Shown piece by piece: positions 2,375-12,583 of a stretch of 12,583 nt of DNA. The stretch's first letter is position 1; every line of letters begins with the position of its first letter. The stretch spans positions 1 to 12,583 of the forward strand of contig JBFXGD010000099.1 of NCBI GenBank assembly GCA_050178385.1, given 5' to 3'. The translations under genes and the position numbers were made by a program. The notes beneath the pieces were generated by a model. It searched no databases. It saw only the letters and a program-made list of their open reading frames with translations, and was not told where the DNA came from. Source of the stretch: Calditrichaceae bacterium. Its GTDB lineage: Bacteria; Calditrichota; Calditrichia; Calditrichales; JBFXGD01.

Positions 2375-3520
2375 ATGGACTTATTAAATCTAAAGATTAT
2401 CCCAAAGAAATATAATGAAGACCTTATCAAAGCCGTTATCGAAAATGATATTGAATCCGCCGATTCAATTGTCAGAAACGGCATCGATGATCCTGACTCC
2501 ATCAATCGGATTCTCGCTTCGTTCTATATCTTAGGCGCAAGGATGATCGACGATCAGTCAATCACTCCACAGGGAGTCATTTACGCCGACGCTGTAATCG
2601 ATCTGGTCAAGACTGTATTTAAGGACGAGGATCCGACACCGGTGCTTAAAAAAGCCATCCGCTACTTTTGCTCTTTTGATTACAAGGAAAATGATATCAG
2701 TAAAATGCGTTTCAAAGATGGCGAATTCCCACAGGCGGTTGTCGTCAAAGACCTGGCTCTCGCTATTTATGAGGGCAATTATGACGATGCCATCCGGACC
2801 GCCCGTAATATATTATACGCGATAGATTCAAAAAAATATTTCAATGAAAATCTGATTGAGATTGCTTCCGGATATTATTCAGAATCCGGGCATCAGGCTC
2901 TGATATTGGCCAACGCCACAAGCAAAGGGCTGGAATTTCTGGAATGGGAGAGCAGCGAAGATCTTGTTTTTAATGTAATCCGCTATCTGGTCGATTTGAG
3001 GAATGACACTTCAGGAGAATGGATCGAACCTGTCCAGGCGGATAAGATCAATTATCCCGATTATTTTCTTCGTATTTCGATAAATCCGGGTAAAAAGGGT
3101 GAAAATGCGGTTTATCTGACCCATGCCCGCCAGGTCTACAGATACGCCTCGGCAAAATATCAGATAATCTGGGGGAATCTGGCCGCTTATATCGCCCGTT
3201 CTTTTAATGAATTCCCGGCGCCGGAGAACCAGAGCATAGACACCATAAGCGGCAGCATTGAAGGCATCAGAAAAGCAATCGCCGACAAGGATGAGGCATC
3301 GGCAACAGCTCAGTTTGCAGGTTTGAACAAAGCCGGTGAGAATGAAAACAAATTATTCAAACCAATTGTTGACTCAATTTGTAATGACGGTGCGGATAAT
3401 GACGCGGACGGTCTGATTTTTCTAAACTCCGCGAGAAGAATGGCAAGAGCTTTGAAATATCCGAGAAATTTTCATATTGTACAAAATGCGGTAAAATTCG
3501 CGGTAAAGTTGCATTTATAG
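2375..3520 (+). CDS. Hypothetical all-helical protein with internal ~80-100 aa repeats
   Basis: 381-aa ORF in line with its neighbours; repeated segments visible by eye (see findings). No family recognised with confidence. Confidence 0.75.
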   Translation: MDLLNLKIIPKKYNEDLIKAVIENDIESADSIVRNGIDDPDSINRILASFYILGARMIDDQSITPQGVIYADAVIDLVKTVFKDEDPTPVLKKAIRYFCSFDYKENDISKMRFKDGEFPQAVVVKDLALAIYEGNYDDAIRTARNILYAIDSKKYFNENLIEIASGYYSESGHQALILANATSKGLEFLEWESSEDLVFNVIRYLVDLRNDTSGEWIEPVQADKINYPDYFLRISINPGKKGENAVYLTHARQVYRYASAKYQIIWGNLAAYIARSFNEFPAPENQSIDTISGSIEGIRKAIADKDEASATAQFAGLNKAGENENKLFKPIVDSICNDGADNDADGLIFLNSARRMARALKYPRNFHIVQNAVKFAVKLHL

Positions 3521-5708: not shown

Positions 5709-7106
5709 ATGAAAAACCGTTTGAACGATCTCGATTCAAAATCATATATGAAATTTCTCAAGTCGTGGTATATTAATGACGACTCATCTCTACTTGATTT
5801 TATCCGGTTTTTTACAAAAGAGTATAATCCCGATGAGACTTCTTCGGCAGTCGCTGTTTATGGTGTTGACTATGAATCCATCGACCTTCAGCGCTTGACC
5901 GGGCGAAGAATCACTGATATTACTAAAAACGCATTGAATGAAAAAATATCCTACGCCATCATAAATTTGCAAAATGAAACACTGGAATCTGAACAAGGCG
6001 TAAATATTTTTTTTGTAAACACACTGACCCCGATTCTCAAACAAATGTTTCAATATCTCGAAGATAGACGATACATCACCATTTTTGTACGAAATCATCA
6101 ATCCGGTAGTAATTTTTATCCGGCCGCATGGCACATGGGTAAATTAGTTACCGCTTATTTTGAAATGAAAGATGAAAAATTGGGATGCATAAACGGATCG
6201 GATTCCGGTGATAAAAATTTTCCGGTCACCGGTTCTGAAGTTTTGTATGCCTTAAATTTCAGACAGACTCTAACCGTTCCGAAAACATCAACCGCCATAA
6301 AATATCACCCCGGGCGGAATTTTACCAAATCCGTTATACCGTCATGGTTTATTCTAAAACCGCCGCCACGTCACGAGAAAGTAAAACTGCATCCCGCAAA
6401 ATTCCCCGAAGTTTTGATCAGCCGGTATATAGAGAAATATACAAAACCGGGTGAATCGGTATTCGATCCCATGTCAGGCACGGGAAGCACACAGATGGCC
6501 TCTCTTGAAAGTGGCCGTCTCGCCTATGGCTGTGAAATAACAGACCATTTTTATCGGATCGCTGTCGATAGACTGCGGCAGTTTTCCAAAAACAATAGTA
6601 TTTCATCAACAGATGGAAATCATCTTTTTTTTATCGAGCATGGAGACGCGTACTATTTCGACAGAAACGCCGAATTTCCACCAGAGTTTGATTATATTAT
6701 TACTTCTCCACCATACTGGGATATGCTGAACATGAAAGGCGCTGAGACTCAGCAAAAACGTCGTGACCGGGATCTGCTGACCAACTACTCCGACCTTGAC
6801 ACTGATCTTGGGAACTGCGCGGAATATGATATATTTCTGGCAAAATTAATTCGTATTTATGATAAGGTCATCTCCCGTCTGAAACCCGGCGGTCACATGA
6901 CTATTATTGTGAAAAATATCAAGAAGAAGGGGACGATTTATACTTTTGCCTGGGACCTGGCGGAAAAACTGGCGCCGAAAATGGAATTATGCGATCTTAG
7001 TTTCTGGCTGCAGGATGATATCCGGATTGCTCCGTACGGCTATGGAAATGCCTGGGTCAGCAATACATTCCATCAATACTGCCTGACTTTTCAGAAGACC
7101 GGATAA
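5709..7106 (+). CDS. Amino (N4-C/N6-A) DNA methyltransferase with a degenerate N-terminal duplicate domain
   Basis: HPAKFP, VFDPMSGTGST (motif I) and GCEI precede the catalytic TSPPY (SPPY at 6705-6716). Residues ~1-187 resemble the C-terminal domain but lack these motifs. Confidence 0.85.
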   Translation: MKNRLNDLDSKSYMKFLKSWYINDDSSLLDFIRFFTKEYNPDETSSAVAVYGVDYESIDLQRLTGRRITDITKNALNEKISYAIINLQNETLESEQGVNIFFVNTLTPILKQMFQYLEDRRYITIFVRNHQSGSNFYPAAWHMGKLVTAYFEMKDEKLGCINGSDSGDKNFPVTGSEVLYALNFRQTLTVPKTSTAIKYHPGRNFTKSVIPSWFILKPPPRHEKVKLHPAKFPEVLISRYIEKYTKPGESVFDPMSGTGSTQMASLESGRLAYGCEITDHFYRIAVDRLRQFSKNNSISSTDGNHLFFIEHGDAYYFDRNAEFPPEFDYIITSPPYWDMLNMKGAETQQKRRDRDLLTNYSDLDTDLGNCAEYDIFLAKLIRIYDKVISRLKPGGHMTIIVKNIKKKGTIYTFAWDLAEKLAPKMELCDLSFWLQDDIRIAPYGYGNAWVSNTFHQYCLTFQKTG

Positions 7107-7175: not shown

Positions 7176-7979
7176 TTATAAGACAAAAATCTTTTTATCA
7201 AACCGGAGAAGATTTCTCGCGGCGGGTAGATCCCGAACCGCGCAGCCTTTATTTTTAATCCTCGTGGCGAACAATCCGTTCAAAAATTTGCTTCCCGGAG
7301 GGATATCGTCGAAAAATTGCCATTCCTCCGGTCCGGCGCAACCTGTAATCAGCATATAAGTCTCATTTTTATCCATCGTTACTTCAATCGGACCTATCAT
7401 ACGCAGAATATAGTCCTTTTGATTTTCATAATACGCTTTGTTGGCAACTATTTTTTGGAAATTTTGAAATTGTTCCTGTGAGAGAGGGACATTCAATCCG
7501 AATGAATTTAAAAAGGTAAAAAGATATCTTTTTCTCCGGCTCATGCTATATGCACATTTTCCTCTTTTTGCCCACTGATCCATATCATAATTATTTGGGA
7601 CTAAAACGGGCAAATCAACGATCTCATCGGTTTTTACTTTTTCCAGGTCCATGTTAAGACTTTTTATATCCCATTCTTCCGATTCGCCGTTAATACAAAT
7701 CATCAAATCAAAAAGATCACTTTGCCAATAAGGAGTGCTTCCTTTGTTAAAATCAGCTGGTATATTTAACCTGTGGAACGCTTCCCTGATAAAAATCTCC
7801 GGAAGTTTTCCAAGAACAATATTCCGCAGCCTTTTTTCAAATCCACGCCGTGTTAAATCATACTGCATACGGTTAATCGTCCAGGGCAGTGAAACCGCCC
7901 CGTAATGTTTCGATTCCGTCAATGCTTTAATCAGAAGATTTTTGCTAACGTAGATCTTAACAATCTCATCAGACGTCAT
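7176..7979 (-). CDS. Hypothetical protein, putative PD-(D/E)XK nuclease (restriction-endonuclease-like)
   Basis: 267-aa ORF with LGKLPE helix, SDLFDL and WDIKS in the E...D...D-x-K spacing of PD-(D/E)XK nucleases; convergent with the DNA methyltransferase. The ORF is solid, the function tentative. Confidence 0.5.
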   Translation of the reverse strand: MTSDEIVKIYVSKNLLIKALTESKHYGAVSLPWTINRMQYDLTRRGFEKRLRNIVLGKLPEIFIREAFHRLNIPADFNKGSTPYWQSDLFDLMICINGESEEWDIKSLNMDLEKVKTDEIVDLPVLVPNNYDMDQWAKRGKCAYSMSRRKRYLFTFLNSFGLNVPLSQEQFQNFQKIVANKAYYENQKDYILRMIGPIEVTMDKNETYMLITGCAGPEEWQFFDDIPPGSKFLNGLFATRIKNKGCAVRDLPAARNLLRFDKKIFVL

Positions 7980-11493: not shown

Positions 11494-11522
11494 TTGACAG
11501 AGTAAAAAATCTTCTTTATATT
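11494..11522 (+). promoter_or_regulatory. Sigma70-type promoter for tRNA-Asp
   Basis: TTGACA (11494-11499), 17-nt spacer, TATATT (11517-11522), ~50 nt upstream of the tRNA. Confidence 0.8.
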
Positions 11523-11574: not shown

Positions 11575-11648
11575 GGTCCGGTAGTTCAATTGGTTAGAGC
11601 ACCTGCCTGTCACGCAGGAAGTTGCGAGTTCGAGTCTCGTCCGGACCG
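11575..11648 (+). tRNA. tRNA-Asp (GTC), CCA not encoded
   Basis: Cloverleaf: acceptor GGTCCGG/CCGGACC, D arm GTTC/GAGC, anticodon stem CCTGC/GCAGG with loop CTGTCAC (GTC 11609-11611), T arm GCGAG-TTCGAGT-CTCGT, discriminator G followed by CTT. Confidence 0.97.
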
Positions 11649-11656
11649 CTTTAACG

Positions 11657-11684
11657 AGGGGAATCTTATGATTTCCCTTTTTTT
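11657..11684 (+). terminator. Intrinsic terminator after tRNA-Asp (copy 1 of 3)
   Basis: AGGGGAATC-TTAT-GATTTCCCT stem-loop ending in a 7-T run. Confidence 0.8.
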
Positions 11685-11710
11685 GTTTAGATTTGATTCC
11701 CATTAAATCT

Positions 11711-11804
11711 CTGTCGCGCAGGAAGTTGTCCCGATGTATCGGGAAGTCTCGTCCGGACCGCTTTAACGAGGGGAATCTTATGATTTCCCTTTTTTTTTGT
11801 TTAG
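11711..11804 (+). repeat. tRNA-Asp 3'-half copy A with palindrome-substituted T-arm, plus terminator copy
   Basis: 11711-11728 = tRNA 11607-11624 (one A>G); 11729-11744 TCCCGATGTATCGGGA replaces CGAGTTCG; 11745-11804 = 11633-11690 (T-run 9 vs 7). Confidence 0.95.
11769..11798 (+). terminator. Intrinsic terminator copy 2
   Basis: Same stem-loop as 11657-11684, with a 9-T run. Confidence 0.75.
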
Positions 11805-11855
11805 GACCCTTTCAATTCCATCATACTGATCTTCTGATTAAAATGTTTTTACTAT

Positions 11856-12110
11856 ATGAACAATCTCATTTGGTACGTCTATATTCTATATTCAGAATCC
11901 ATTAACCGCTACTATGTTGGATCGACTAGCAACCTTGTATGGCGATTAGAACGTCATAATTTAGGATGGGGAAAATATACAAAAAATGGAATTCCCTGGA
12001 TTCTTGTTTACTCTGAACAATTCGAAACAAAATCACTTGCTTCGAAAAGAGAAAGAGAAATCAAAAGAAAAAAATCCAGAATTTATATTGAATCTTTACT
12101 TGAAAAATAG
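11856..12110 (+). CDS. Stand-alone GIY-YIG nuclease (UPF0213-like, 84 aa)
   Basis: YVYIL...YYVGST (GIY-YIG strands), RLERHN (catalytic Arg/His), KYTK...PW.LVYSE, A..RE.EIK (metal-binding Glu). No obvious RBS. Confidence 0.92.
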   Translation: MNNLIWYVYILYSESINRYYVGSTSNLVWRLERHNLGWGKYTKNGIPWILVYSEQFETKSLASKREREIKRKKSRIYIESLLEK

Positions 12111-12217
12111 ACGCAGGAAGTTGTCCCGATGTATCGGGAAGTCTCGTCCGGACCGCTTTAACGAGGGGAATCTTATGATTTCCCTTTTTTTGTTTAGATT
12201 TGATTCCCATTAAATCT
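12111..12217 (+). repeat. tRNA-Asp 3'-half copy B with palindrome-substituted T-arm, terminator and trailer hairpin
   Basis: 12111-12123 = tRNA 11612-11624; palindrome at 12124-12139; 12140-12217 identical to 11633-11710. Begins on the base after the GIY-YIG stop codon. Confidence 0.95.
12164..12191 (+). terminator. Intrinsic terminator copy 3
   Basis: Identical to 11657-11684. Confidence 0.75.
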
Positions 12218-12243
12218 CTGTCGCGCAGGAAGTTGTCCCGATG
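12218..12243 (+). repeat. Truncated tRNA-Asp 3'-half copy C
   Basis: Identical to 11711-11736 (including the A>G variant); ends after TCCCGATG, halfway through the palindrome. Confidence 0.9.
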
Positions 12244-12583
12244 ATCCACGAGCTAAAGCTCGTGGCAATAATACGAATCGGTACCGTCCAGGAAGCACTC
12301 ACCGGAAATTCATAGCCCCGATCTTTAGATCGGGGACAATTGAGTAAGCGCGCGAATCCAAGACTCAGCCAACTCCGGTAATTCCCCAATACCCCACGAA
12401 CTAAAACTCGTGGCAATAATACGAATCGGTACCGTCCAGGAAGCATTCACCGGAATTTCATAGCCCCGATCTTTAGATCGGGGACAATTGATTAACCCCG
12501 CGAATCCAAGACTCAGCCAAATCCGTTATTTCCCCGATGATCCACGAGCTAAAGCTCGTGGCAATAATACGAATCGGTACCGT
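12237..12583. repeat. 148-bp tandem array of paired REP-like hairpins (BIME/REPIN-like), ~2.3 units, open at the window end
   Basis: Hairpin CCACGAGCT-AA-AGCTCGTGG at 12246, 12394 (variant) and 12542; hairpin CCCCGATCT-TT-AGATCGGGG at 12316 and 12464. Linkers are near-identical and the period is exactly 148. Confidence 0.92.

Follow-up and report, generated by a model that had tools for sequence, protein, structure and literature searches.

A GIY-YIG nuclease gene among hairpin-plugged partial tRNA copies in a Calditrichaceae bacterium belongs to a family of tRNA-linked cassettes

The tRNA-Asp locus of a Calditrichaceae bacterium carries a gene for a very small GIY-YIG nuclease, set among partial copies of the tRNA gene that are plugged by a short hairpin. 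This combination of a GIY-YIG gene with tRNA fragments is a trait of a whole family and not an oddity of a single locus. The feature is real, and it is best placed with a kind already known, the tRNA-targeting GIY-YIG selfish genes. Our best reading, to which we assign a probability of about 0.6 from comparative sequence analysis, is that of a chromosomal homing-type selfish cassette that would cut tRNA genes, be copied into them by host recombination and rebuild one intact tRNA gene.

The window analyzed here is the entire contig JBFXGD010000099.1 (C99; 12,583 bp) of a 3.89-Mb genome with 42% GC, and all elements of the locus are on its forward strand. An intact tRNA-Asp(GTC), the presumed target gene of the cassette, occupies 11575-11649 (ARAGORN; Rfam RF00005, 68 bits) and is preceded by a candidate sigma70-type promoter at 11494-11522, proposed by consensus match only (11/12 matches). 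It is followed by an intrinsic terminator (11656-11686) of host-specific sequence that recurs in each unit, by pseudo-tRNA copy A (11711-11761) and by a second intrinsic terminator (11768-11799). Copy A consists of tRNA positions 33-50 with one mismatch, a 16-nt hairpin plug (11729-11744) and positions 59-75. Downstream lies the stand-alone nuclease gene (PF01541; 11856-12110), which encodes an 84-aa protein of a tRNA-Asp-linked branch. Copy B (12111-12156) begins one base past the nuclease stop codon and contains positions 38-50, a plug (12124-12139) and positions 59-75; it is followed by a third intrinsic terminator (12163-12192) and by copy C (12218-12243), which ends mid-plug. The original prediction, made from the sequence alone, had listed these tRNA, terminator, copy and nuclease elements, and ARAGORN, Rfam, Pfam and repeat alignment bore out the layout. 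It had taken the copies for 3′ halves of the tRNA; they are tRNA-derived, but they are not whole halves, being made of positions 33 or 38 to 50, the hairpin and positions 59-75. Similarly, the 16-bp palindrome that it described as absent from the real tRNA does exist, but it is an interrupted palindrome (7-bp arms around 2 nt, predicted to fold as a hairpin) and represents a replacement rather than a pure insertion, in which the 8 T-arm nucleotides at tRNA positions 51-58 are swapped for 16 nt.

The locus is highly repetitive. Terminator-like hairpins at 11656-11679, 11768-11791 and 12163-12186 are identical. Direct repeats at 11717-11804 and 12112-12197 (88 nt) are 97.7% identical and, as had been claimed, differ only in a T run, by a 2-nt gap; moreover, 11633-11736 and 12140-12243 share an exact identity of 104 nt. 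Unit spacings downstream of tRNA-Asp are 112 and 395 bp, and each tandem unit runs from tRNA position 59 through the 16-nt hairpin at its end. The shorter unit is composed of positions 59-75, terminator, spacer, positions 33-50 and hairpin, and the longer one of positions 59-75, terminator, spacer, nuclease gene, positions 38-50 and hairpin. A second 112-bp unit is interrupted within its own hairpin by a separate tandem repeat of 148 bp (12237-12583), which overlaps copy C by 7 nt, has two palindromes per unit and is REP/BIME-like by resemblance. The array of this repeat continues into contig C146. We rejected the 148-bp repeat as a part of the cassette, given that its full-length form was found only in the host's genus. 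It is dispersed in that genus (also on C146, C59, C187 and C10), each of its palindromes singly recurs in other families of the class, and no transposase was seen beside the inspected copies.

The absence of integrase, transposase and reverse transcriptase genes, also part of the original prediction, held: these families had no Pfam match among 18 ORFs (17 from the window and one from C146). Overlapping ORFs at 11693, 11986 and 12210 were likewise without Pfam match and were discarded as genes, being read as read-throughs of the repeats. Elsewhere in the window, an N6/N4 DNA methyltransferase (Pfam; 5709-7106, forward strand) is convergent with a gene for a 267-aa protein without Pfam match (7176-7979, reverse strand), whose neighbors in the Atlas are clusters without names that weakly point to T4 endonuclease IV-like proteins; the two are possibly a restriction-modification pair. 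An additional ORF of 381 aa (2375-3520, forward strand) had no Pfam match.

The joints of the tRNA-Asp locus were also found in contigs of public sequencing runs from different studies. Contigs of run X2 join terminator 2 to the nuclease gene, and those of runs X1 and X3 join the nuclease gene to copy B and copy B to copy C and the 148-bp repeat. This bridging is piecewise, with no contig covering the whole stretch; the best run may be the source sample itself, and copy number is not readable from these data. A joint of 12195 to 11883 in a public contig was considered as a sign of a circle and rejected, as it fits equally well a tRNA 3′ end and terminator directly upstream of the gene.

The 84-aa protein matched PF01541 with an E value of 7.1e-15 and 55.5 bits (cut-off 22.6), and this was its single Pfam domain. 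It has the GIY and YIG motifs, central Arg, C-terminal Glu and beta-beta-alpha-beta-alpha fold of the GIY-YIG superfamily. Among 35 homologues, Y9, Y20, G22, R30 and H34 were invariant and E66 was at least 90% conserved. The structure was predicted with a pLDDT of 91.4. Its nearest solved sequences were PDB 1ZG2 and 1YWL (UPF0213; E values 1.6e-6 and 1.5e-4), and the nearest folds, which included SLX1, had TM scores by query of 0.59-0.70, every E value being above 0.001. TIGR01453 scored 12.5 bits, below its cut-off of 56; no NCBIfam match over cut-off and no match in PHROGs or PADLOC was detected. Relatives were absent from 50,697 phage records, from plasmid records and from viral contigs, the latter searched with the single 84-aa sequence. 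Look-alike Atlas clusters were mostly from Bacteroidota. Judging by dN/dS values of 0.07-0.34 in eight pairs (dS was saturated in four further pairs), the nuclease is under purifying selection. In-frame stops were present in 7 of 105 tRNA-linked and 4 of 36 unlinked loci.

All three PF01541 matches in the host genome were tRNA-linked. A second cassette is located at tRNA-Cys (C88:867-1783; L001), with the intact tRNA-Cys downstream. Its units contain tRNA-Cys positions 1-37, a hairpin, a T-arm piece and a nuclease 39% identical to the window protein; there are three units, with two full nuclease genes (one with an in-frame TGA) and one cut by an N gap. Alignment with G001, a genome of the same genus whose Gly-Cys-Leu operon is clean and without insertion, placed the insertion point exactly between tRNA-Cys positions 37 and 38; the units are 306 bp long, and the flanks are nearly identical. 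The insertion holds nuclease units only. In addition, at least three plugged 85-bp units were found at C119:1-285 (L415), where a 5′ part of tRNA-Val(TAC) has its anticodon arm replaced by a hairpin and the array runs off the contig end. No intact tRNA-Val(TAC) was present among the 40 tRNAs of the host assembly, and G001 has a clean tRNA-Val at the corresponding site. Filled and empty alleles thus occur within one genus; the original prediction had named empty tRNA-Asp loci in related genomes as support, and clean empty sites do exist, two of them being the tRNA-Cys and tRNA-Val sites of G001. The tRNA-Asp locus of G001 itself has at least four plugged units around an N gap, with an identical hairpin and an identical copy-C junction. 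No nuclease match was detected in this array, which the gap interrupts; we do not take it as proof of nuclease loss or of action in trans, since the gene may sit in the N gap, and an X1 contig with G001-type variants carries the nuclease. A UvrC-type GIY-YIG match was missing from the host assembly (94% complete), probably owing to an assembly gap, as its relatives have one.

Homologues of the 84-aa protein showed the same association. For the class set, 86 genomes from the class of the host yielded 146 matches, for which 109 loci outside the host's own genome were fetched (tandem matches share one locus; the weakest matches and a few second loci were omitted). A same-strand tRNA was present within 400 bp in 50 of 71 evaluable loci and an opposite-strand tRNA in one; fragments of the linked tRNA occurred in 44, fragments together with a hairpin in 23 and tandem copies in 10. 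In other phyla, 69 loci in named genomes were collected, of which 68 were scored and 57 had at least 400 bp on either side. Among these 57, a same-strand tRNA lay within 400 bp in 42 and an opposite-strand tRNA in none, and tRNA fragments were present in 36, accompanied by a hairpin in 31. The background was 28 of 2361 ORFs; linkage counts include a few plugged copies miscalled as tRNAs by ARAGORN, and loci from related genomes are not independent. No integrase was seen in the loci viewed, where the nuclease directly adjoins a tRNA fragment, and no conserved partner gene was found in the loci inspected. Cultured, non-pathogenic carriers include Algoriphagus, Litoribacter and Pedobacter. ARAGORN labeled several plugged pseudo-copies as tRNA-Cys, -Phe, -Leu or unknown isotypes (L011, L014, L016, L018, L020 and L040), and such copies are a likely source of false tRNA annotations.

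Plugged fragments of at least 10 tRNA isotypes were found beside homologues, in agreement with the expectation that tRNA-fragment and palindrome flanks would recur at different isotypes. In a quick protein tree (178 proteins, 85 columns, many forks open), linked proteins grouped by isotype, whereas most unlinked proteins and Ssn-type proteins formed a separate clade of 33 rows. The branch of the window protein (23 rows, SH-aLRT 93) includes Ignavibacteriaceae, and its identifiable tRNAs are all Asp. On a tree of 65 proteins from class loci with fragments, with automatic isotype labels of which one is known to be wrong, the isotype label (10 states) changed 13 times, compared to 38-51 times in 1000 shuffles; the host family label changed 31 times, compared to 30-40 when shuffled. 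Fifteen genomes had branches at different tRNAs. Against our best reading, sub-branches of the Asp clade track host family, a pattern that vertical inheritance over long times with repeated losses would also explain, and a same-strand tRNA within 400 bp was missing at four Asp-branch loci whose flanks were long (L235, L237, L239 and L243).

Junctions are fixed within each branch, and Cys and Asn have junctions of their own. Both T-arm junctions of Asp recur in 16 genomes, Ignavibacteriaceae among them, and the hairpins at these junctions have at least 20 different interiors. Isotype and junction position co-vary with nuclease phylogeny; the palindrome sequence, which had been anticipated to do so, varies freely in its interior within the Asp branch. 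An exact exchange of the 17-nt anticodon arm was seen in copies of six isotypes (Lys, Val, Glu, Arg, Asp and Leu); the T-loop motif persists in the fragment of these anticodon-arm branches, which counts against our best reading. The proposed restriction to tRNA 3′ ends did not hold, as D-loop, anticodon-arm and T-arm junctions all occur. Ser, Thr and Leu branches have other or double hairpins, and the rule that the plug loop retains the anticodon when the anticodon arm is replaced was dropped, since it was true in only 9 of 25 plugs.

The hairpin itself is not confined to tRNA genes. A strict hairpin pattern occurred 7, 30, 32, 33 and 72 times per genome in five genomes (control matches 0), exceeding the counts in tRNA arrays alone, and the host genome has 61 plug-type hairpins compared to 7-23 in shuffles, many of them within non-tRNA repeats. 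A perfect hairpin at the fragment edge was present in only 40 of 64 class loci, a few of these hairpins being terminators. Both the dispersal outside tRNAs and this limited occurrence count against our best reading, and because of the dispersal the hairpin is not a proven partner of the nuclease. From the sequences, the plug is best seen as a junction mark, possibly also as a second, more general hairpin parasite. GC-rich plug-type hairpins were also observed within two other dispersed repeat families of the host (one on C53, C68, C119, C162, C187, C191, C217, C229 and C277; the other on C138 and C187); one of these families resembles Ssn-type repeats by eye, a case of a hairpin parasitising other hairpin repeats.

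Occupancy of tRNA-Asp sites was variable. Among 39 evaluable loci (57 were fetched, the first 25 being biased to filled sites), 11 had the nuclease, 7 had fragments and hairpin, 5 only the hairpin and 1 only a fragment, i.e., nuclease-free scars, and 15 were clean, one of these with an inverted nuclease nearby. At one locus (G042:C22:90300-91900; L338), tRNA-Asp is inverted relative to its own nuclease cassette and plugged fragments, which suggests a local inversion. Tandem amplification, which had been predicted, proved common and was also seen in single-contig genomes (G002 at Val; G086 at Gln and Asn). The intact tRNA was upstream of the cassette in 88 of 103 cases and downstream in 12, at least 3 of the 12 being miscalled plugged copies; a downstream intact tRNA was seen directly at C88 and L003, so the intact gene is not always the upstream one, as had been thought. 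The duplicated arms match the host: duplicated 3′ flanks had a mean match of 0.84 within genomes (8 loci) and 0.62 between genomes (28 pairs), and fragments matched the host's own tRNA variant (G049, L002).

Several known systems share features with the cassette. Islands and integrative conjugative elements with tyrosine integrases insert into tRNA genes at junctions in the anticodon loop or T-loop, the element supplying a partial tRNA duplicate that restores the gene. A partial tRNA duplication restores the gene in the cassette as well; however, the cassette is only ~300-400 bp, is tandemly amplified, has neither tyrosine nor serine integrase in the 18 ORFs and, unlike these elements, has its displaced tRNA fragment plugged by a hairpin. 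REP/RAYT and IS200/IS605 systems also differ, as the gene adjacent to the repeats is of the GIY-YIG type and not an HUH tyrosine transposase, and no transposase family was matched. A close parallel is SegB of phages T4 and T6, which cuts tRNA genes at a T-loop motif and homes (PMC2330249) and drives tandem amplification through recombination (PMC13096335). Both SegB and the cassette gene lie among tRNA genes without an integrase, are present in some and absent from other related genomes and form tandemly amplified units of tRNA and nuclease. Moreover, the core of the SegB site, as given there, consists of T-loop bases, and the Asp plug removes the corresponding bases. SegB is, however, a phage protein with a C-terminal NUMOD3 DNA-binding part, whereas the window protein is chromosomal, has 84 aa and consists of a single domain. 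According to the same sources, SegB cuts many isotypes, and its neighborhoods show no isotype preference, whereas cassette branches are isotype-specific by linkage; hairpin-plugged partial tRNA copies are not part of the SegB descriptions consulted.

Resemblance to the Ssn system (SsnA/NTS, cd10448; PMC11893778) is also evident, in that SsnA is a single-domain GIY-YIG protein of less than 100 aa with a hairpin repeat of similar core on either side; the window protein, at 84 aa, has a plug on each side, and the Ssn authors compare NTS-ssnA-NTS to a mobile element (PMC11893778). However, the Ssn SRM pattern had no site in C99 or C88 and was found in 0 of 69 and 0 of 25 loci (positive control 80/80), and the window protein does not have the C-terminal extension of NTS-linked proteins. 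Grouping of the Asp branch with Ssn-type proteins was rejected (p-AU 0.0104, 40 rows) in a test that was defined after the first tree and used seven Ssn-type proteins exclusive of SsnA itself. These seven form a clade of their own; six come from viral contigs, where they lie next to exact NTS motifs, and one was grouped with them. The words "tRNA" and "tandem" do not occur in the main text of PMC11893778, whose supplements list GIY-YIG clusters that may include these proteins. Prokaryotic Slx1-like/UPF0213 proteins (PDB 1ZG2, 1YWL) share the minimal domain without auxiliaries; in the text available of the 2006 superfamily survey, stand-alone Slx1-like proteins are given without tRNA-gene linkage, repeats or mobility (PMC1564403), and in our tree most non-tRNA proteins belong to the 33-row clade apart from the tRNA-linked branches. 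No description of the cassette was found in the literature searched, which lay mostly outside subscription journals, or by terms in PMC9897764.

In the mechanism that we propose, the cassette would combine a GIY-YIG gene that encodes no more than the catalytic domain with a partial copy of one tRNA gene and a GC-rich junction hairpin, each nuclease branch being tied to one tRNA isotype and one junction pair. The nuclease would nick the tRNA gene; its probable target is a stem-loop that becomes accessible when the DNA is single-stranded or extruded. Such a target is proposed because the lone SLX1-like domain is without a separate DNA-binding domain, and isotype specificity together with junctions at cloverleaf loops also points to a tRNA stem-loop recognized in DNA. 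GIY-YIG domains cut by hydrolysis without religation, so that movement must use host repair. Host homologous recombination would copy the cassette from a donor allele, with the tRNA arms serving as homology. Given that the cassette carries a partial tRNA duplicate, one gene would remain intact, and in the other copy the plug would cover the position of the cut. The 112-bp and 395-bp arrays could arise if the intact gene is still cut at a residual rate and direct repeats cross over unequally, and repeat crossover could also excise a unit and regenerate an empty site. The layout corresponds to a single crossover of the tRNA gene with a unit of nuclease and pseudo-tRNA: crossover in the right arm would leave the intact gene upstream, and crossover in the left arm would leave it downstream. 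Both permutations were found, which is what a circle or tandem unit able to cross over in either arm should yield. The two terminators 5′ of the nuclease gene would hold its expression low. The intact tRNA retains the presumed target, however; self-protection is thus unexplained, which counts against our best reading. We also consider, tentatively, that the cassettes constitute a distinct class of minimal mobile elements of ~300-400 bp, in which one hydrolytic nuclease domain would act with a pseudo-tRNA, composed of left arm, plug and right arm, through which a mini-circle or tandem unit would recombine by crossover in either arm, and at least 10 nuclease branches would each read the stem-loop of one isotype in DNA.

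Among other explanations, the least improbable, though doubtful, is a pair of the Ssn/REP type, in which the nuclease reads the plug in single-stranded DNA, as SsnA does with NTS, and is responsible for its spread or maintenance. In that case, the plug would enter stem-loops generally, tRNA genes would survive only if duplicated, and the nuclease gene would accompany one plug. The plug core (5-bp outer arms with ~6 nt between) matches by eye the Neisseria NTS hairpin core, SsnA illustrates that a lone domain of ~94 aa can be sequence-specific on ssDNA hairpins (PMC11893778), and the copy number of the plug (7-72 per genome against 0 control matches) and its presence in other hairpin repeats of the host are consistent with such a pair. 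However, the unmatched SRM pattern and the position of the protein outside the Ssn clade argue against it, and reading of the plug leaves unexplained why branches track isotype while plug interiors vary. It is less probable that the nucleases are a domesticated host function, i.e., old residents of tRNA loci that cut incoming DNA with tRNA-like attachment sites or cause tRNA genes to be repaired or amplified; self-cutting would have left the fragments as by-products. Strong purifying selection, a partly vertical signal within branches and the absence of relatives from phage, plasmid and viral collections would agree with this idea, and a benefit is conceivable, as phage T6 is described as gaining from SegB-driven tRNA amplification (PMC13096335). 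Yet presence is very patchy and varies within one genus, copies are broken at 7 of 105 loci, the window protein has no PADLOC match, and the inspected loci have no conserved partner gene.

Quite improbable is the explanation that the loci are passive relics of tyrosine-integrase islands that carried the nuclease as cargo, and that the hairpin is a repeat without relation to them. Although tRNA fragments typically mark integrative elements and the hairpin also occurs independently, outside tRNAs, the nuclease adjoins the fragment directly, the loci viewed have no integrase, and the tRNA-Cys insertion is the cassette alone; isotype-specific branches with junctions fixed across phyla would not be expected from independent decay. 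An assembly artefact at the contig end appears negligible. The window end is repetitive, and related arrays are often at contig ends or contain N gaps, but the junctions recur in contigs of other runs, and the same layout is present in G001 and in single-contig genomes, so doubt is confined to copy number.

If our best reading of a homing-type selfish cassette is true, these cassettes would represent widespread, overlooked selfish DNA in bacterial chromosomes, which colonizes essential tRNA genes without integrase, transposase or intron, and for which a single 84-residue domain suffices. They would account for many pseudo-tRNAs and miscalled isotypes in Bacteroidota-type and uncultured genomes, as well as for assembly breaks at tRNA loci, and would assign a function to a large fraction of the orphans annotated as "GIY-YIG nuclease family". 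The map of branches to isotypes provides candidate enzyme-substrate pairs, with which the specificity of a lone GIY-YIG domain becomes testable. If the cassettes are indeed a distinct class, their nucleases would amount to a natural collection of nickases below 10 kDa that are specific for both structure and sequence.
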